Counted from the stretch's first letter, positions 26,556 to 35,574 are shown. The stretch: DNA of 64,000 bases from Thalassospira sp. (GCF_048059015.1 NZ_JBLLNT010000005.1:172034-236033), one strand, 5' to 3'. The notes: generated by a model from the letters alone, not told the origin. A program made the numbers and translations.

Positions 26556-29519
26556 ATGAACAAGCCACTGCTGGTCACAAAAATTCTTGCGCCCTTTGTG
26601 CTGGTCGCCCTGATCATCGGCATTGGTGGGTTGCATGTTCTATATAAGGAATTGATTGAAGAACGGCGTGCGTCACTTTTGCGGCTGGCGGCGACCAACG
26701 CCGAACTGATCAATGCAGTTGCCGAATATGATCAAACACACACGCTTGAAAAAGGTGATGGCGCCGCGTTTACGGCCACCTTGTCCCAGCTCCGCAATGC
26801 GTTTGGTACGCTTACAACTCTTGATGCGGCGGGTGAACTTCTGATCGTTCGCCGCAGTGGCGACAAAATTGACATTCTGATCCATCAGAATACCCGCCAT
26901 TTGGGCGAAGATCATCCAGCCCATCTTCACATTTCCGACGGCTACGCCCAACCGATGCTTGAAGCACTCGCCGGTCGCAGCGGAACCACTTGGACGAAGG
27001 ATTCCCATGACCGCGAAGTCCTGATTGCTTACGCACCTGCCCCGGCGATGGGGGTTGCAGTGATGATTGAAGTTCACCGTGATGAACTTCTTGCCCCGTT
27101 TATTTCCACTGCCGTGATGCTGGTGACAATCGGTATCGCGGCCATTGCGGTTGCCGCATCCTTTACTTATTCCCAAACGGTTCGGGTTGTTGAAAATGCC
27201 TTGTTTGACCGCAAGCAAAGCATTGAAGCACTTGAAAAGGCAGAAGAAGCGCAACGAACCCTTGAGCATGCCCTTAAATCGACGGGTGAAGGCTTTGCCT
27301 TGTTTGACGCGGAAGACCGGCTGGTTGCGTGCAATGATGTTTATCGCGACATCTACAAATCCCACAGCGATGCCATCAAACCCGGCAACCGGTTTGAGGA
27401 TATTCTGCGCACCGGCCTTTCGCGTGGTGCGTTTCCCGATGCGATTGGTGTGGAAGAAATCTGGTTGGCGGACCGACTGCGCGAACACAAAAAAACGCGC
27501 AGCAAGATTGAACAACAGGTCGGCGACCGCTGGCTCTTGATTTCGGAACATCGCACCGAAGATGGCGGCACGGTCGGTGTACGAACCGACATCACCGAAC
27601 TTAAGAACAAGGAACGTGAACTGCGTGAAAGTGAAAAGCGGTTCCGTGACTTTACCCTGACGGCATCAGACTGGGTCTGGGAAACCGACCCGGAACATCG
27701 GATCAAACGAACAAGCATTCGAACCGACGAAGTCCCAAGTTTTGATCTCAATAGCATACTTGGGAAACGCCGCAGTGAATTCGCAGCCGAGGAAACCGAC
27801 AATTTCAAATGGCGCAAGCACAATGAAACGCTCGAAGCTCGGCTGCCATTCCGGGATTTCCAATATCAAATCGCTCTCGATAAGGATCGGGTAAGAACCA
27901 TCTCGATTTCGGGGGTTCCGATCTATGACGACGATGGCCAATTCTGCGGCTATCGGGGCACCGGTCGTGACCTTACTGATATCATCGAAAGCCGCGAGCG
28001 TTTCCGTGTCGCGTTTGAAAGTGTCACGGTCGGTATTATCTTTGCCGATGAACGTGGCGTTATCGAAGGGTTCAATCCCGAAGCAGAGCGCATTTTTGGC
28101 TATCACGCCGATGAGGTCCTTGGCCGCAATGTCTCAACGCTTATGCCCAACCCGGATCGGGAACGCCATCATAGCTACATGAACAATTATCTTGGCGGCG
28201 GCCCAGCACAGATCATCGGCAAAGGGCGTGAGGTCAAAGGCCTCAACAAGGACGGCACCGTCTTTCCGATGAACCTTGGCATCGCGGAAATGAATGTTCA
28301 GGGGCGCCGGCACTTCATCGCTTCCATCACGGATTTGACGGTCGAACATGCGCTTGAACATCAACTACGCCGCTCCCAGAAAATGGAGGCGATTGGCCAG
28401 CTGACCGGTGGTGTTGCGCATGATTTCAATAACTTGCTGGGCATTATTGTCGGCAATCTTGATCTTGCACGTCGTCGCCTCGAAGGCGATTCTCCGGTTG
28501 CAAAGTTTGTCGGCAAGGCCATGACCGCGGCCGAACGTGGCGCGACTTTGACCAGACGTTTGTTGAACTTTTCCCGCCAAGCCCCAGAAGAAAACGCACC
28601 GATCATCATCAATCATGTTCTGCGCGATTTGCGCGATCTGATTGGCAAATCCATCACATCCAAAATCTCGTTCGAGCTGGTCCTTGAAGAAGCAATTCCG
28701 ACCGTTCAACTTAATCAAGGAGATTTCGAGGATGCGGTTATCAATCTTGCGCTCAATGCCCGTGATGCCATGCCCGATGGCGGTCAGTTGATCATTGAGA
28801 CCCGCGTCACCCATATCGACGATTTACCGCCCCCCGCCATTCAACGTGTCCCCAGCGGCGACTATGTCGAACTGATCATCAGTGACGATGGCGTTGGCAT
28901 GAATGCCGATTTGACCGATCAAATATTCCAGCCGTTCTTTACGACCAAGGATCAGGGCAAGGGAACGGGACTAGGTCTTGCCATGGTTTATGGCTTTGTG
29001 AAGCGATCAGGTGGCTATATTTCGGTTTATTCCGAACTGGGCCTTGGCACGACGTTCCGGATTTATTTGCCGATTGCGCCAACTGTTATGCAAACCGCCT
29101 CGAACAGCAGCTTTGATACCGCTGCCGAACCGAAATCGGGCGATGAAACCATTTTGATTGTCGATGACGAACAACAATTGGCCGAAGTCGCATCGTCTGT
29201 TTTGGAAGAATACGGCTACACAACCCTGGTCGCCCATAGCGGGATCGAAGGCCTGGAGGTTCTTAAAGACCATCCCGAAATCGATATGGTGTTTACCGAT
29301 ATTGTTATGCCCGGTGGCATGAACGGCATGGAGCTTGGCGATCAGGCCCGTGAATTGCGCCCCGAAATCGCAATTTTAACATGCTCGGGCTTTACTGCGG
29401 GCATCTTGCATGAACGCGGTGAAGATAAACCGATCTATCCCATGATCAGTAAGCCCTATAACAACCGGGAACTTGCCAATGCCATCCGAACAACACTTGA
29501 TCAGGCGGCTGAGTCCTGA
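26556..29519 (+). CDS. Membrane hybrid histidine kinase (PAS x3, HisKA, HATPase, REC)
   Basis: Two TM helices, PAS repeats, GGVAHDFNNLL, NLALNARDAM, GTGLGLAMVYG, receiver FTDIVMPG. Confidence 0.93.
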   Translation: MNKPLLVTKILAPFVLVALIIGIGGLHVLYKELIEERRASLLRLAATNAELINAVAEYDQTHTLEKGDGAAFTATLSQLRNAFGTLTTLDAAGELLIVRRSGDKIDILIHQNTRHLGEDHPAHLHISDGYAQPMLEALAGRSGTTWTKDSHDREVLIAYAPAPAMGVAVMIEVHRDELLAPFISTAVMLVTIGIAAIAVAASFTYSQTVRVVENALFDRKQSIEALEKAEEAQRTLEHALKSTGEGFALFDAEDRLVACNDVYRDIYKSHSDAIKPGNRFEDILRTGLSRGAFPDAIGVEEIWLADRLREHKKTRSKIEQQVGDRWLLISEHRTEDGGTVGVRTDITELKNKERELRESEKRFRDFTLTASDWVWETDPEHRIKRTSIRTDEVPSFDLNSILGKRRSEFAAEETDNFKWRKHNETLEARLPFRDFQYQIALDKDRVRTISISGVPIYDDDGQFCGYRGTGRDLTDIIESRERFRVAFESVTVGIIFADERGVIEGFNPEAERIFGYHADEVLGRNVSTLMPNPDRERHHSYMNNYLGGGPAQIIGKGREVKGLNKDGTVFPMNLGIAEMNVQGRRHFIASITDLTVEHALEHQLRRSQKMEAIGQLTGGVAHDFNNLLGIIVGNLDLARRRLEGDSPVAKFVGKAMTAAERGATLTRRLLNFSRQAPEENAPIIINHVLRDLRDLIGKSITSKISFELVLEEAIPTVQLNQGDFEDAVINLALNARDAMPDGGQLIIETRVTHIDDLPPPAIQRVPSGDYVELIISDDGVGMNADLTDQIFQPFFTTKDQGKGTGLGLAMVYGFVKRSGGYISVYSELGLGTTFRIYLPIAPTVMQTASNSSFDTAAEPKSGDETILIVDDEQQLAEVASSVLEEYGYTTLVAHSGIEGLEVLKDHPEIDMVFTDIVMPGGMNGMELGDQARELRPEIAILTCSGFTAGILHERGEDKPIYPMISKPYNNRELANAIRTTLDQAAES

Positions 29520-30109
29520 AGATCAAGATGCATTGTCGTTGAGGATTGGAATCCGAACAGGTGCTTGAATGGGCCAATGTCATTGGTTTCAATCGCGCGA
29601 AAACCGCATCGCTCATAAAGCGCGCGGGCACGCGGATTGATATCAATGACATCCAGCCGAACTTTTGACAGCCCGCGTTGATGTGCCGTGTGCGCCACCG
29701 CGTCCAAAAGTGCGGTACCAACACCCTGCCCGCGTGCCTTGGGATCGACAAAGATGCCATCCATCAAAAGAATGTCATTGGTCAGTTCACGATCAAGCAT
29801 CGCCAATAAAAGACCGCGCCAAAACCCACCCCATGATCCATAGATCGCGCGCAAGTCATCAAGGTCACCGCCAACAAAGGCACCCTGTTTGGTCTTGAAC
29901 CCGGCAACGCCCAGCAAACTGCCATCATCGGCAATCGCACTGATCGCGTGATCAGGGCCGATGGCACTTTTAACAAACGCCAATGCCTTGTCTTCGGGTT
30001 TCAAAAGGATGGTCAGTTTCTGACGAAAGGCTTCCCAGAACAGGTCGCAGGCCTGATCAATATGACCCGCCGCCAATCCCGGGCGAATGGTAAATCCCTG
30101 ATGGTTCAT
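29501..30109 (-). CDS. GNAT acetyltransferase
   Basis: DGIFVDPKARGQGVGTALL, RALYERCGF; 19-bp tail overlap with the kinase. Confidence 0.88.
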   Translation of the reverse strand: MNHQGFTIRPGLAAGHIDQACDLFWEAFRQKLTILLKPEDKALAFVKSAIGPDHAISAIADDGSLLGVAGFKTKQGAFVGGDLDDLRAIYGSWGGFWRGLLLAMLDRELTNDILLMDGIFVDPKARGQGVGTALLDAVAHTAHQRGLSKVRLDVIDINPRARALYERCGFRAIETNDIGPFKHLFGFQSSTTMHLDLQDSAA

Positions 30110-30198: not shown

Positions 30199-31329
30199 TT
30201 AGCCAGAACTGGCCCGTGGGCGGATGATCTTGCCGCTTTTGCGCTGCTCAAACAGATGCGCGATCCAACCGGTCATGCGCCCCACGGCAAAAATGCCAAG
30301 CCCCGCCCCCTTTGGTAGACCAAGTTCGCGTTCCACCAACGCCAACCCGAAATCAAGGCTGGGATGAAGCCCGGTTTGCTCTGTGACTTTCTTGGCAACG
30401 CTTGACCAAAACGCTTCACCGGTTTGACCACACGCCGCCATCAATGCCCGCGTTCTGGGATCCCCATCAGGGTAAAGTGGATGACCAAAGCCGGGCGGAA
30501 CCAGATCAGAATCAAAGTCACCCCCTGCCTTTTCCACCTCGTCCATCCACACCCGGCATTTGGGCGTCAATCCGCCATGGCGCGTGCCGGAAAGTGTCGA
30601 AAGACCGGCCATCAAGGATGCCGGGATCGTCGCCCCGGCCGATGCCGCGACACGCACTGCATAGGCCGATGCATTCAATTCGTGATCGGCACACAGTACC
30701 AGTGCACGCCGCAAGATATCGGGTGCGTTTTCATGGCTGGACCAAGCATTGGCGAGCAATAGATGCATGGGACTTTCCCCGTCATCACAAAGGCCAGCCG
30801 CCGCCAGCGCACCCAGCCGCACAATCTTGGCGGCAAACGGACGACCATCCCCGCGCACAGAACCGGTCACAAGGTCTGCCATCATCATTACCATGCGTTC
30901 GAATGGCATGGCATGATCGGTCGGAATGAAATCGATCGCTGCGTTCAACGCCGGATCACATCGCAACCCGGCCAAGTGCCCCGCCACATCTTCGAGTGTC
31001 ATCGTCGCGGCAAGATCGACCGCATTTTGACCGCGATAGTAAAACTGCCCGTCTGCAATCCGGGTGAGGTTCGACACCAGGATCGGCTCGCCCCAATCAA
31101 TGGTCGATGCCGCCACTGACTGGCGGGAGCGCCCGCGCTGTTTGCGATCATGCAGCTTGGCGACATCGCGCCGATCATACAGGCTTTTGCGCGCATCGCT
31201 TGGATGGGCAATAGCGCGCACAATGCCGCGGCTGACATAGGCATATAACGTGTCGCGCGATATGCCGACCTGCGTGCAAACGTCCGCCGCCGACAAAGTA
31301 CAAAATGATCCGTCATCGATTTTTTTCAT
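30199..31329 (-). CDS. HTH-citrate synthase family fusion protein
   Basis: N-terminal HTH (LSAADVCTQVGISRDTLYAYVSRG); ADHELNAS, GTRHGG, GFGHPLY, SLDF. Confidence 0.85.
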   Translation of the reverse strand: MKKIDDGSFCTLSAADVCTQVGISRDTLYAYVSRGIVRAIAHPSDARKSLYDRRDVAKLHDRKQRGRSRQSVAASTIDWGEPILVSNLTRIADGQFYYRGQNAVDLAATMTLEDVAGHLAGLRCDPALNAAIDFIPTDHAMPFERMVMMMADLVTGSVRGDGRPFAAKIVRLGALAAAGLCDDGESPMHLLLANAWSSHENAPDILRRALVLCADHELNASAYAVRVAASAGATIPASLMAGLSTLSGTRHGGLTPKCRVWMDEVEKAGGDFDSDLVPPGFGHPLYPDGDPRTRALMAACGQTGEAFWSSVAKKVTEQTGLHPSLDFGLALVERELGLPKGAGLGIFAVGRMTGWIAHLFEQRKSGKIIRPRASSG

Positions 31330-31330
31330 A

Positions 31331-31354
31331 TTGATTATCTTGATCAAGATTGAC
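31331..31354. promoter_or_regulatory. Palindromic operator candidate between divergent genes
   Basis: Perfect 14-bp palindrome ATCTTGATCAAGAT (31337-31350) within three TTGAT/TTGAC units. Confidence 0.5.
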
Positions 31355-31421
31355 CATTTGTCCAGTCCCGCATGATGCTTTGGGCCTTAGTCGCTCCGCC
31401 CCATGAATAGGAAACGTCATC

Positions 31422-32777
31422 ATGCAAAACCGCTTTATCCCTCAGATCGCCACCGCCCTTGGTTTGTCAGAAGCACCTGACATTCAGGTGATCGGAGCTG
31501 AGAGCCTTCCGTCCTATTTTGCCGTATCCGAACTTGCATCCGCCTCAATCGAAATGGCGGCATCCATGATTGCCAAATGGCGCCCGCTTGAGACTGGTAC
31601 TGGCGGACAGATCAACATTGATCAAAGACTGGCATCGAAATGGTTTGATATGACCATTCGCCCACAAGGCTGGGACCTGCCCAGCATTTGGGATCCATTG
31701 GCCGGTGATTATCAAACCCGCGATGGCTGGATCCGTTTGCATACCAACGCCCCGCATCACCGTAAAGCCGCTCTGTCCGTCCTCGGCGACTACGAAACAC
31801 GTGATGACCTTGCCATGGCCGTGCGGGACTGTAACGCGGATGACCTGGAAAGCTCGATTGTCAGCGCCAACGGATGTGCAGCTGCCATGCGCAGCATCAC
31901 GGACTGGCAAAATCATCCGCAAGGCAAAAGCATCGCGGCAGAACCATTGATTGCTTGGCAGCGGCACGCAAAGACATCCGTCACGCCAAAGCAGATTGAT
32001 CCGACAAGACCGCTGCGCGGCATTCGCGTCCTTGACCTGACGCGCGTGTTGGCTGGTCCCGTTGCCGGACGGTTTTTGGCGGCTTATGGCGCGGATGTGT
32101 TGCGCATTGACCCGCCGGGTTGGGATGAAGGTGCGGTTATTCCCGAAGTCACGCTTGGCAAACGCTGTGCTGGATTGGATTTGCGGGCAACAGAAGACCG
32201 GAAAGTGTTTGAGGATCTGGTCGCCAGTACCGATATCCTTTTGCATGGCTATCGCCCCGATGCCCTGCCCGATCTCGGGTATGATGCCAAAACGCTCCGC
32301 GCGATCAACCCCGCCCCGATTGATGTGACACTGTCGGCATATGGCTGGACCGGTCCATGGGCAAAACGGCGCGGCTTTGACAGTCTTGTTCAGATGAGCT
32401 GCGGGATTGCCGATTGGGGGATGCAGCATGCAAAGGCGAGCAACCCCGTGCCGTTACCAGTTCAAGCACTGGATCACGCAACGGGATACCTGATGGCGGC
32501 CAGTGCCGTGCGTGCTTTGATCCTGCGCCAGACCATTGGCGAAGTCACCAGCGCGCGCCATTCATTGGCCAGAACCGCACATATGCTCTGCCAGACCGCA
32601 ACACCGGATCTGGTTGGCGAGATCGCGGCAGAGCATCTTGCAGACATCGATCCACATATCGAGGAAACAAGCTGGGGCCCTGCGCGTCGCATCGCCTTCC
32701 CGGTCGCGATTGAAGGCGTTTCGCATCATTGGGATCACCCGGCCGGGACGCTTCATCGGCATGATCCGTGCTGGTGA
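31422..32777 (+). CDS. CaiB/BaiF family III CoA-transferase
   Basis: LRGIRVLDLTRVLAGP, LLHGYRPDAL, RRGFDSLVQ. Confidence 0.9.
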   Translation: MQNRFIPQIATALGLSEAPDIQVIGAESLPSYFAVSELASASIEMAASMIAKWRPLETGTGGQINIDQRLASKWFDMTIRPQGWDLPSIWDPLAGDYQTRDGWIRLHTNAPHHRKAALSVLGDYETRDDLAMAVRDCNADDLESSIVSANGCAAAMRSITDWQNHPQGKSIAAEPLIAWQRHAKTSVTPKQIDPTRPLRGIRVLDLTRVLAGPVAGRFLAAYGADVLRIDPPGWDEGAVIPEVTLGKRCAGLDLRATEDRKVFEDLVASTDILLHGYRPDALPDLGYDAKTLRAINPAPIDVTLSAYGWTGPWAKRRGFDSLVQMSCGIADWGMQHAKASNPVPLPVQALDHATGYLMAASAVRALILRQTIGEVTSARHSLARTAHMLCQTATPDLVGEIAAEHLADIDPHIEETSWGPARRIAFPVAIEGVSHHWDHPAGTLHRHDPCW

Positions 32778-32846: not shown

Positions 32847-32946
32847 CGTCATCTCCGGGGGGGCCAATCGTGAATTGGCTGAGAGGTTCGGTGTTGCCGA
32901 ACGACCCTTTGAACCTGAACCGGTTAAGACCGGCGTAGGAAGGATC
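32847..32946 (+). ncRNA. TPP riboswitch
   Basis: GGGG..., GCTGAGAGG, ACCCTTTGAACCTGA, CCGG-TTAAGA-CCGGCGTAGGAAG directly upstream of the ABC operon; ends approximate. Confidence 0.93.
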
Positions 32947-32948
32947 GA

Positions 32949-33731
32949 ATGCGCGACACAGAACACGCGTCCCAGCTGGGGCAAAATCCAACCCGATTTG
33001 ATATTTATCTGCGCTCTGCCCGCGTGGCATTTGGTGGTGCGGATATTTTCCATGACCTTGACCTGACACTGCGCGCAGGAAGTTTCACCTGCTTGCTGGG
33101 GCCAAGTGGTGTCGGCAAAAGCACACTTTTGCGCTATCTCGCCGGTCTGGTGGAAGGCGATGTCAGCGGCAATATCACCTGTTCGGATGACAACCCCCTT
33201 GACGGCCGGATCGCTTACATGGCGCAGCAGGATTTGCTACTGCCCTGGCGGAGTGTTCGGGAAAATGTCGAACTTGGTGCTGCCCTTCGTGGCGAACGTC
33301 CAGATCATGAGAAATCGGAACGCCTGATCGCCGAAGTCGGTCTGACCGATGCTGCGCATTTGCGCCCGGCTGAACTATCAGGCGGCATGAAGCAACGCGC
33401 AGCCCTTGCCCGCACATTGATGGAAGACCGCCCGGTCGTCTTGATGGATGAACCGTTTTCGGCCCTTGATCCGGTCAATCGGCTGCGGCTTCAGGAACTC
33501 GCAGCAAAAGTCCTGCGCGGCAAGACCGTGTTGCTGGTGACCCATGATCCGCTCGAAGCACTTCGTCTGGGTGATCATGTCTATGTGCTTTCAGGCGCAC
33601 CGGCAAACCTTCGTGATGCGGTAACGCCCATGGGGCCAAGCCCGCGCAATATTACCGATCCGGAAATCCTCGCCCAGCAGGCAGAACTGCTTCGCCAATT
33701 GGGCGCGGACATGTCGGAGGGTGCGCTATGA
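32949..33731 (+). CDS. ABC ATPase of a thiamine-precursor (HMP) transporter, ThiZ-like
   Basis: GPSGVGKST, LSGGM, LMDEPF; follows the TPP riboswitch. Confidence 0.88.
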   Translation: MRDTEHASQLGQNPTRFDIYLRSARVAFGGADIFHDLDLTLRAGSFTCLLGPSGVGKSTLLRYLAGLVEGDVSGNITCSDDNPLDGRIAYMAQQDLLLPWRSVRENVELGAALRGERPDHEKSERLIAEVGLTDAAHLRPAELSGGMKQRAALARTLMEDRPVVLMDEPFSALDPVNRLRLQELAAKVLRGKTVLLVTHDPLEALRLGDHVYVLSGAPANLRDAVTPMGPSPRNITDPEILAQQAELLRQLGADMSEGAL

Positions 33732-34540
33732 GCCAGCCGACCCTAAACCCAGCGAAACGCAAACCGCTTTCCGAACGGCGCTGGCTGAAACTTGCCCGGC
33801 CACTGATCATCGTCGCGGCGCTGATCATCACATGGCAATTGCTGGTCATGATCACCGGTGCGCCGAAATATATGCTGCCAACACCGGCCGATGTCTGGAA
33901 AACCTTGATCGCGCGCCACGCGGTGTTGCTTGATCATGCGCAATATACGATTGCGGAAACCGTAATCGGGCTTTTTGCCGGTGCAGCCCTTGGCACGCTT
34001 GCCGCGATCCCGATGGCGCTCTTTACCCCGGTTCGCTTCTGGTTGATGCCGATCCTTTTGGTGTCGCAAGCCATTCCGTTCTTTGCCTTGGCCCCGCTTT
34101 TGGTGTTGTGGCTGGGCTTTGGTCTGGCATCCAAAATCGCCATGGCGGCATTGATCATTTTCTTCCCGGTAACCGTGGCCTTCTTTGACGGGTTGGCACG
34201 GACCGAAACCGGCTGGCTTGATCTGGCGCGTACCATGGGGGCAAGCCGTTGGCGGCTTTTGACCCATATTCGTTTGCCGGCGGCCCTTCCGGCCTTTGCA
34301 TCGGGTTTTCGTGTTGCCACCGCTGTGGCCCCGATCGGGGCGGTGATTGGTGAATGGGTCGGGTCAAGTCACGGGCTTGGCTATTTGATGCTGCATGCCA
34401 ATGCGCGCGTTCAGATTGACATGGTTTTTGCCTGCCTTCTGATCCTGTGTGCGTTTTCGATCACGCAATATTTCATTGTCGACCGGGTACTACGCGCGGC
34501 CCTGCCCTGGCAACCAGATAGCCTGAAACCGGTATCGTAA
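33728..34540 (+). CDS. ABC permease, ThiX-like
   Basis: SsuC-type permease, IGAVIGEWVGSSHGLG. Confidence 0.88.
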   Translation: MSQPTLNPAKRKPLSERRWLKLARPLIIVAALIITWQLLVMITGAPKYMLPTPADVWKTLIARHAVLLDHAQYTIAETVIGLFAGAALGTLAAIPMALFTPVRFWLMPILLVSQAIPFFALAPLLVLWLGFGLASKIAMAALIIFFPVTVAFFDGLARTETGWLDLARTMGASRWRLLTHIRLPAALPAFASGFRVATAVAPIGAVIGEWVGSSHGLGYLMLHANARVQIDMVFACLLILCAFSITQYFIVDRVLRAALPWQPDSLKPVS

Positions 34541-34620
34541 TACAAATTGCTGCAGCCCGATTGGCTGCGCCCGCAATCCTCATACTTATAAAATTGGCGC
34601 TTAAATACGGAGGTTCTTCC

Positions 34621-35574
34621 ATGTCACGCCTTAAATCCATGATCACAGCAGCCACACTTGGTGCTGCGGTTCTTGGCACTTCCACTTCGGCCTTTGCCGC
34701 AGACAAACTGGTTATTCTTCTGGACTGGTTTGTAAACCCCGACCACGCGCCGCTGATCGTTGCCAAGGAAAAGGGCTTCTTTGCCAAGCATGATCTTGAT
34801 GTCGAGCTGATCGAACCGTCTGATCCGTCCGCACCGCCGCGTCTTGTCGCTGCGGGTCAGGGTGACGTTGCCGTAAACTATCAGCCGCAGCTTCACGTTC
34901 AGGCAGCAGAAGGCCTTCCGCTGACGCGTATTGGCACCCTGGTTGCCACCCCGCTTAACAGCCTGATTGTCCTTAAAGACGGTCCGATCAAGGAGATCGC
35001 TGATCTTAAGGGCAAAAAAATCGGCTATTCGCTGGCTGGTTTCGAAGATGCGCTTCTGGGCACGATGCTGGGCAATCACGGTGTGTCGATGGATGATGTC
35101 GAGCTGATCAATGTGAACTTCTCGCTCTCGCCGTCGCTTTATTCCGGTCAGGTCGATGCGATCATCGGCGGTTACCGTAACTTCGAGCTCAACCAGATGG
35201 AAATCGAAGGTAAACCGGGTAAGGCATTTTATGTCGAGGAAGAAGGCGTTCCGCCTTATGACGAGCTGATCATGACGGTCCGCAATGACAAAACCGACGA
35301 TCCGCGCTTTGCGCGCATGCTTCTTGCCCTTGAAGAAGGTGTTCAGTACCTGATCAACCATCCCGATGACAGCTGGCAGGCCTTTATCGGTGCGTATCCG
35401 AACCTTGATGATGAACTGAACATCAAGGCATGGGCAGACACCCTGCCGCGCTTTGCCCTGCGTCCGGCGGCCCTTGATAAGGCACGCTACAATCGCTTTG
35501 CCGATTACATGGTCAAGCAGGGCCTGATTGAAGAAAGCCCGGCACTTGAGACCTATGCGACCGTGATTGAATAA
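34621..35574 (+). CDS. NMT1/THI5-like substrate-binding protein, ThiY-like
   Basis: Signal peptide, LDWFVNPDHAP, GGYRNFE; SD GGAGG. Confidence 0.9.
   Translation: MSRLKSMITAATLGAAVLGTSTSAFAADKLVILLDWFVNPDHAPLIVAKEKGFFAKHDLDVELIEPSDPSAPPRLVAAGQGDVAVNYQPQLHVQAAEGLPLTRIGTLVATPLNSLIVLKDGPIKEIADLKGKKIGYSLAGFEDALLGTMLGNHGVSMDDVELINVNFSLSPSLYSGQVDAIIGGYRNFELNQMEIEGKPGKAFYVEEEGVPPYDELIMTVRNDKTDDPRFARMLLALEEGVQYLINHPDDSWQAFIGAYPNLDDELNIKAWADTLPRFALRPAALDKARYNRFADYMVKQGLIEESPALETYATVIE

Follow-up and report, generated by a model that had tools for sequence, protein, structure and literature searches.

The locus considered here raises the question of why a citrate synthase fold should carry a DNA-binding domain, and whether the resulting protein acts as an enzyme or as a regulator of the CoA-transferase gene that faces it. 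It lies in a 64,000-nucleotide stretch of DNA from Thalassospira sp. (GCF_048059015.1 NZ_JBLLNT010000005.1:172034-236033), hereafter the window, in which all positions are counted. The reading that we favour, with somewhat better than even confidence, is that of a two-gene cassette in which a helix-turn-helix–citrate synthase (HTH-CS) protein senses a citrate-type acid and controls the CoA-transferase. An earlier note on this DNA had assigned the pair to an undefined pathway; what the locus holds is the two-gene cassette and no multi-gene pathway.

Domain organization of the HTH-CS protein

The putative one-component transcription factor is encoded at 30199..31329 on the minus strand (376 aa, ATG at 31329), and a divergent gap of 92 nt separates its gene from that of the CoA-transferase. 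A longer gene call, from a TTG at 31347, was rejected, as this start falls within the operator described below and close orthologues have 376 aa. An Xis/BldC/MerR-type DNA-binding domain with the invariant motif TLYxYVSRG spans residues about 8-66 (31132..31308, minus strand), and a citrate synthase (CS) fold spans residues about 75-376 (30202..31107, minus strand). The predicted structure has a pLDDT of 89.6, with low confidence in linker residues 66-81. Residues 8-66 of the model align with Pukovnik Xis (Z 7.3), GIsul2 Xis (Z 6.8), and BldC (Z 6.7), and residues 75-376 with CS and PrpC over ~300 residues (Z 28-31.5), which bears out the earlier description of an excisionase-like HTH fused to a CS fold. 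Across BldC, Xis, RacA, and MerR, the DNA-binding fold is shared at Z 5.8-7.3 over 52-58 residues; unlike these proteins, HTH-CS is fused to a 300-aa enzyme fold and has no MerR coiled coil.

At the level of sequence profiles, residues 12-60 gave weak matches to HTH_17 and MerR_1, both under the Pfam cut-off, and SoxR was the sole match when the HTH profile was compared with PDB sequences (E 0.046). The recognition residues of the HTH are nevertheless invariant among homologues. The remainder of the protein matches PF00285 (E 6e-47), and the His/His/Asp motifs that had been noted before, GTRHGG (H251), GFGH (H283), and SLDF (D326), are all present.

A conserved putative operator in the divergent gap

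The putative operator is a 25-bp box (31330..31354) that reads GTCAAT-C-TTGAT-N7-ATCAAT on the regulator strand. It contains three alternating TCAA/TTGA half-sites, which form two inverted repeats, TCAA-N2-TTGA and TTGAT-N7-ATCAA, with the middle half-site common to both. Its conservation was assessed in 115 homologous genomic loci and in 80 metagenome loci kept as a held-out set, both being the best matches listed and not a random sample. The motif RTCAAT-M-TTGAT-N7-ATCAAY was present upstream of the HTH-CS gene with more than 15 bits in 104 of the 115 listed genomic matches. Among these 104 sites, the core columns are 90-99% invariant, TTGAT-N7-ATCAA is kept in 93, and TCAA-N2-TTGA in 99.

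When a spacer of N6 or N7 and two mismatches were allowed, the box was found at 184/195 loci among the matches listed (105/115 genomic and 79/80 held-out), so that ~6% of these loci were without it, and in 0/188 downstream control stretches. Its hosts include alpha-, beta-, and gamma-proteobacteria, Acidobacteriota, Chloroflexota, and Bacteroidota. The earlier note had named absence of the site from orthologous loci as a refutation of its proposal; the count of 184/195 among listed matches does not refute it, and the idea of an enzyme-fold one-component regulator whose operator lies between the two divergent genes is supported. In the held-out set, again among the matches listed, the spacer was N7 in 59 loci and N6 in 20. 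The N6 variant was seen in L065, L096, and L108 and in 20 of L170-L249, within Chloroflexota, Acidobacteriota, and Bacteroidota. In two Comamonas loci (L060, L067), both with long-branch regulators, the operator is reduced to its TCAAT-C-TTGAT half. Tractable hosts of the operator include Caulobacter and Agrobacterium C58, in the latter on plasmid At.

Within the 4.8-Mb genome, the box is the single full site (42.4 bits). The next matches, of 22 and 20 bits, were partial and lay inside ORFs, and no wider regulon was found in this genome. Loci of the same CoA-transferase subfamily provide a further comparison: the box was present in 4/4 loci with an HTH-CS neighbour (32-43 bits) and in 0/21 loci without the HTH-CS gene (4.5 bits or less; one locus is incomplete upstream). 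The box therefore follows the regulator and not its target gene. Strong although indirect, this pattern of sequence conservation makes it very probable that HTH-CS is a regulator that binds the box at 31330-31354.

A perfect 14-bp palindrome, ATCTTGATCAAGAT (31337..31350), lies inside the box, 7 nt from the ATG, and occurs once in the genome. It had been proposed, with flanking TTGA(T/C) repeats, as the operator. The palindrome is real and close to the ATG as described, but its exact form is kept in only 12/104 homologous sites among the matches listed, and six perfect 14-bp palindromes were seen in the 64-kb window where about 4 are expected, so that a palindrome of this length is not by itself beyond chance. 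It was accordingly rejected as the operator in favour of the conserved box and is, judged by the aligned sites, a lineage-specific by-product within it. The span given before, 31331-31354, coincides almost exactly with the conserved box, whereas the symmetry axis named with it differs from the conserved one. Rfam yielded no structured RNA match in the intergenic gap, and neither a repeat finder nor a consensus promoter scan picked up the box region.

The CoA-transferase and other divergent partners

The gene that faces the regulator (31422..32777, plus strand) encodes a family III (CaiB/Frc) CoA-transferase of 451 aa, as had been recognized (PF02515, E 3e-47). Its order is permuted: residues 93-176 correspond to positions 229-311 of PF02515 (E 0.023) and residues 198-395 to positions 1-208. 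The sequence thus does not show the canonical large-small-large order that gives the interlocked dimer. Rv3272 (5yit), CaiB, Frc, YfdE, and SUGCT share the Rossmann domain and the catalytic Asp, but in the protein described here the small-domain segment precedes the Rossmann domain. Solved structures align with residues 193-451 only (Z 20-23); residues 1-192 have no in-order counterpart among them (TM about 0.38). An internal duplication, the N half compared with the C-terminal part, was considered and gained no support (hhalign probability 0.3%), and our claim is therefore limited to the permuted order. D351 is invariant in 81 sequences and corresponds in the alignment to D175 of Rv3272, which is replaced by Ala in PDB 5yiy; the CoA-transferase is therefore probably active. 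It scored under every equivalog cut-off, and no characterised member was found. Because 21 of 25 loci of its subfamily are without an HTH-CS regulator, the CoA-transferase is not firmly tied to citrate.

The CoA-transferase is one of several divergent partners of the regulator. Among the 115 genomic matches listed, 56 have a plain CS as partner, 45 have this CoA-transferase (one further copy is truncated where its contig stops), 3 have prp genes, and the rest have other genes; beyond this divergent partner, no neighbours are conserved across genera. At L165, a full prpB-prpC-acnD-prpF operon faces the HTH-CS gene. The clade that faces prpB/prpC/acnD/prpF, where it apparently replaces PrpR, comprises L165 (2687-10997), L166, and L167, with metagenome members L224, L241, and L248. 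By eye, the partners behind the same operator at L032, L052, and L082 are methyltransferase-like, DUF2332-like, and 2-hydroxyacid-dehydrogenase-like, respectively. At L079, the regulator and the operator are kept and the CoA-transferase is lost. On a regulator tree built by a quick method, in which L079 was wrongly carried as CoA-transferase-partnered, the CoA-transferase label changes 9 times, with at least 7 changes forced by well-supported branches; gain or loss of this partner has thus been a repeated event. By analogy with the CS and Prp partners, with which it is interchangeable, the CoA-transferase may remove a citrate-like acid or excess short acyl-CoA, an assignment that we make tentatively.

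Within the genus, a search of 25 Thalassospira genomes found the two genes together in 12 and neither of them in 13. Two of the 13 cassette-less genomes keep the 3' ends of both genes only. These remnants are a deletion scar, and the cassette is accessory. The two genomes (L168 in G019 and L169 in G002) belong to two species and show nearly the same deletion, about 30290-32672 in window positions. In three Thalassospira genomes (L010-L012) there is a second, distant clade of the cassette (40% identity) that shares the operator, which suggests that it was acquired separately. A search of the source genome matched GltA and did not match PrpC, so the cassette would not control a methylcitrate cycle here. 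A citrate-synthase-like ORF of ~290 aa, which is the size of a citryl-CoA lyase, is matched in most relatives of the same genus; G000 gave none with the query used.

The putative ligand pocket

The seven conserved pocket residues of HTH-CS match the citrate ligands of CS (PMC6386500; PMC10534831). Among the 115 genomic matches listed, H216 is kept in 115, H251 in 115, H283 in 112, R292 in 114, D326 in 113, R351 in 115, and R370 in 114, and in the held-out matches listed each of the seven is kept in 77-80 of 80. The side that would bind CoA is different. The small domain of CS forms the acetyl-CoA pocket (PMC6386500), and in the whole HTH-CS family it is about 13-16 residues shorter than in the enzyme paralogues; the H283-D326 segment has 44 aa here, with a family median of 43 vs 56 in partner CS and 59 in GltA. 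Positions 277, 284, 287, 324, and 367 are basic or amide residues conserved in both enzyme groups, and they are changed or variable in HTH-CS. Single substitutions on the CoA side are not diagnostic, since the active S. enterica PrpC likewise has GFGH-P. The xPGxGH loop of HTH-CS also resembles that of eukaryotic CS, and the assignment of CoA-contact residues is in part provisional.

With the citrate pocket near-invariant and the acetyl-CoA domain shortened, the effector is more likely to be a citrate-type acid than an acyl-CoA, and the acyl-CoA sensing put forward in the earlier note is not favoured, given that it is the citrate/oxaloacetate pocket that is conserved and the acetyl-CoA-binding small domain that is shortened and divergent. 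Judged by the residue pattern, we consider it a little better than an even chance that the effector is a citrate-type free acid. An acyl-CoA, citryl-CoA, or a ternary complex is possible at clearly lower probability, and something else altogether is unlikely.

The best-surviving alternative retains the same regulator and operator and takes acetyl-, propionyl-, or citryl-CoA, or oxaloacetate with acyl-CoA in a ternary complex, as the signal. As CS, the Prp operon, and the CoA-transferase all consume acyl-CoAs, the choice of partners is in keeping with it, as is the retention of the acyl-gripping triad H251/H283/D326, and with this triad fully kept, catalysis or acyl-CoA binding by HTH-CS would be possible. 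It also gains from the acyl-pocket neighbours 213 and 324, which vary with partner type. Among the matches listed, Cys213 occurs in 44/46 loci with a CoA-transferase partner vs 6/56 with CS (held-out 15/17 vs 20/50), and Asn324 in 4/46 vs 44/56 (held-out 3/17 vs 44/50), with kin not independent in either comparison. Position 213 corresponds to Tyr197 of PrpC, a proposed but unsettled acyl-specificity site. The shift at 213 and 324 hints at ligands that would be related but different between partner types. Against an acyl-CoA signal stand the family-wide deletion in the small domain and the loss of the basic or amide residues at the five positions named above, and as a complete account we regard it as rather unlikely, with sensing of a citrate-type acid preferred.

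A second alternative is a bifunctional trigger enzyme following the logic of PutA and BirA, in which DNA binding would depend on the catalytic state of a slow but real citrate or methylcitrate synthase, or of a lyase or hydrolase acting on citryl-CoA. In one version, HTH-CS might cleave a CoA ester made by the partner CoA-transferase, and a CoA-transferase together with a citryl-CoA lyase would constitute a complete two-step route. The conservation of the catalytic triad (97-100%) and the match of citryl-CoA lyases to the fold (Z 15.9 in structure; NCBIfam PRK06224 under its cut-off in sequence) speak for it. However, HTH-CS remains far under all CS and lyase equivalog cut-offs (no curated equivalog or subfamily cut-off was reached, the best score being 111 bits vs 421), and about half of the family has as its neighbour a genuine CS that carries out the reaction. 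A further point against it is that a family member failed to complement, as described below, and the trigger enzyme is improbable.

The Caulobacter homologue CitC

The locus with the published citC primer sequences (L139) encodes a 392-aa HTH-CS protein with 41% identity over residues 12-373, and the operator lies between citB and citC. L139 is from a near relative that is not proven to be NA1000, as the citB primer mismatches. CitC has GFDH where the protein described here has GFGH. By sequence and gene arrangement, Caulobacter CitC is a member of the HTH-CS family. CitC (CCNA_03758) with CitB (CCNA_03757), reported by Berge et al. 2020, thus resembles the present cassette in its HTH and CS domains, its operator, and its divergent partner; the partner of CitC is a CS, whereas here it is a CoA-transferase. 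In the available text of that report, complementation of E. coli ΔgltA succeeded with CitB and failed with CitC, and non-complementation by CitC is a negative result for which that text gives no expression control (PMC7083601). The same text treats CitC only as a putative citrate synthase, with no mention of an HTH or an operator (PMC7083601).

Promoter geometry and proposed mechanism

An inferred sigma-70-type promoter of the CoA-transferase (31350..31379, plus strand) has the -35 element TTGACC (31350-31355), which is the third half-site of the operator, and the -10 candidate GATGCT (31374-31379). This -10 is weak, the spacer is 18 nt, and the consensus scan did not find the promoter. Across the family, an nAnnnT signal resembling a -10 in the partner direction occurs at a spacer of 16-17 in 55/101 sites and of 18 in 10/101, with no more than 1 site at each of 19-21. 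HTH-CS partner promoters thus differ from MerR-type promoters, in which a long spacer of 19-20 nt holds the operator: theirs is 16-18 nt, and the site lies on and upstream of the -35. In the regulator direction, the inferred promoter (31337..31364, minus strand) comprises a -35 TGGACA, a spacer of 16 nt, and a -10 CAAGAT inside the operator, with the start at or near the ATG; motif columns 12-17 (YAAWWT) likewise resemble a -10. The ATG directly follows the box in 25/104 loci, this one included, which suggests a leaderless, autorepressed transcript; there is no Shine-Dalgarno sequence here, and the HTH-CS transcript is probably leaderless. The box would hence overlap both promoters, at the -10 and start of the regulator and at the -35 of the CoA-transferase. 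That it is bound by a global regulator or represents overlapping promoters, with a vestigial HTH on a minor citrate synthase, is highly improbable, for although its half-sites coincide with a TTGAC -35 and a TATAAT-like -10, there is one site per genome, always beside the HTH-CS gene, across phyla, and gone when the gene is gone, its 15 near-invariant positions exceed promoter conservation, and the HTH residues are invariant.

In the model of a regulator that senses a citrate-type acid, HTH-CS would form a dimer of the CS type and contact TCAA/TTGA half-sites within 31330-31354 through its two Xis/BldC-like heads. With the box over its own -10 and start, HTH-CS would repress itself, and the -35 of the CoA-transferase would lie under the same box. 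The CS cleft would not work as a synthase but serve as a pocket for citrate, 2-methylcitrate, or a closely related compound, perhaps as its CoA ester. Binding of the ligand could close the CS domains and alter DNA binding, thereby turning on the CoA-transferase; a possible switch is that the dimer leaves the TCAA-N2-TTGA pair, which overlies the -35, for the upstream TTGA-N9-TCAA pair. The CoA-transferase would then shift CoA between an acyl-CoA and an acid, clearing the inducer or its acyl-CoA precursor. As to the sign of control, we lean slightly towards derepression; activation is a weaker candidate, and repression by the ligand is doubtful.

Relation to known systems and implications

Enzyme folds serve as sensors in several one-component regulators, such as MocR/GabR (GntR with an aminotransferase), NrtR (Nudix with a wHTH), CoaR (MerR-like with a precorrin isomerase), and the ROK repressors. 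Like HTH-CS, these join a DNA-binding domain to an enzyme fold that acts as ligand sensor and control a divergent gene; they differ from it in HTH class and sensor fold. To our knowledge, no regulator family with a citrate synthase fold has been described. In the literature covered, which leaves out most subscription journals, we found no description of the HTH-CS family as regulators or of the permuted CoA-transferase. Salmonella PrpR is a sigma-54, 2-methylcitrate-responsive regulator, and HTH-CS occupies its position at the three genomic loci where it faces prp genes. In some gamma-proteobacterial loci, HTH-CS is like PrpR divergent from prpB-prpC-acnD-prpF, but the two are unrelated, as HTH-CS is without an AAA+, GntR, or Fe-S domain. 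PrpR of M. tuberculosis is reported as a regulator of the 2-methylcitrate cycle (PMC6765138).

HTH-CS homologues gave 6311 database matches and were present in 26/301 sampled Pseudomonadota genomes. The wider proposition that they are widespread mis-annotated regulators, which sense citrate-type acids, slide between half-sites, and have repeatedly recruited the permuted CoA-transferase in place of CS or prp genes, is advanced here as a tentative one. If they are regulators, thousands of "citrate synthase" annotations are wrong, metabolic models would be corrected, and the non-complementation by CitC would be explained. The model would also imply an unrecognised route for citrate, methylcitrate, or acyl-CoA overflow and a function for the CoA-transferase subfamily; the ligand of the regulator offers the most promising lead to the substrate of this large permuted subfamily. 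The prp-facing clade is a good system for ligand identification, and a single protein that senses citrate or methylcitrate would be useful in building biosensors.

Surroundings of the cassette

Downstream of the CoA-transferase, a TPP riboswitch (RF00059, 67 bits; 32847-32958, plus strand) precedes an ABC transporter with an NMT1/THI5 binding protein (32949-35574). Both persist in relatives without the cassette; this is ordinary thiamine-precursor uptake, outside the cassette. On the other side, a GNAT acetyltransferase gene (29501-30109, minus strand) lies 89 nt downstream of the regulator in the same orientation. It is kept in the cassette-less genome G002 and is therefore probably unrelated to the cassette.
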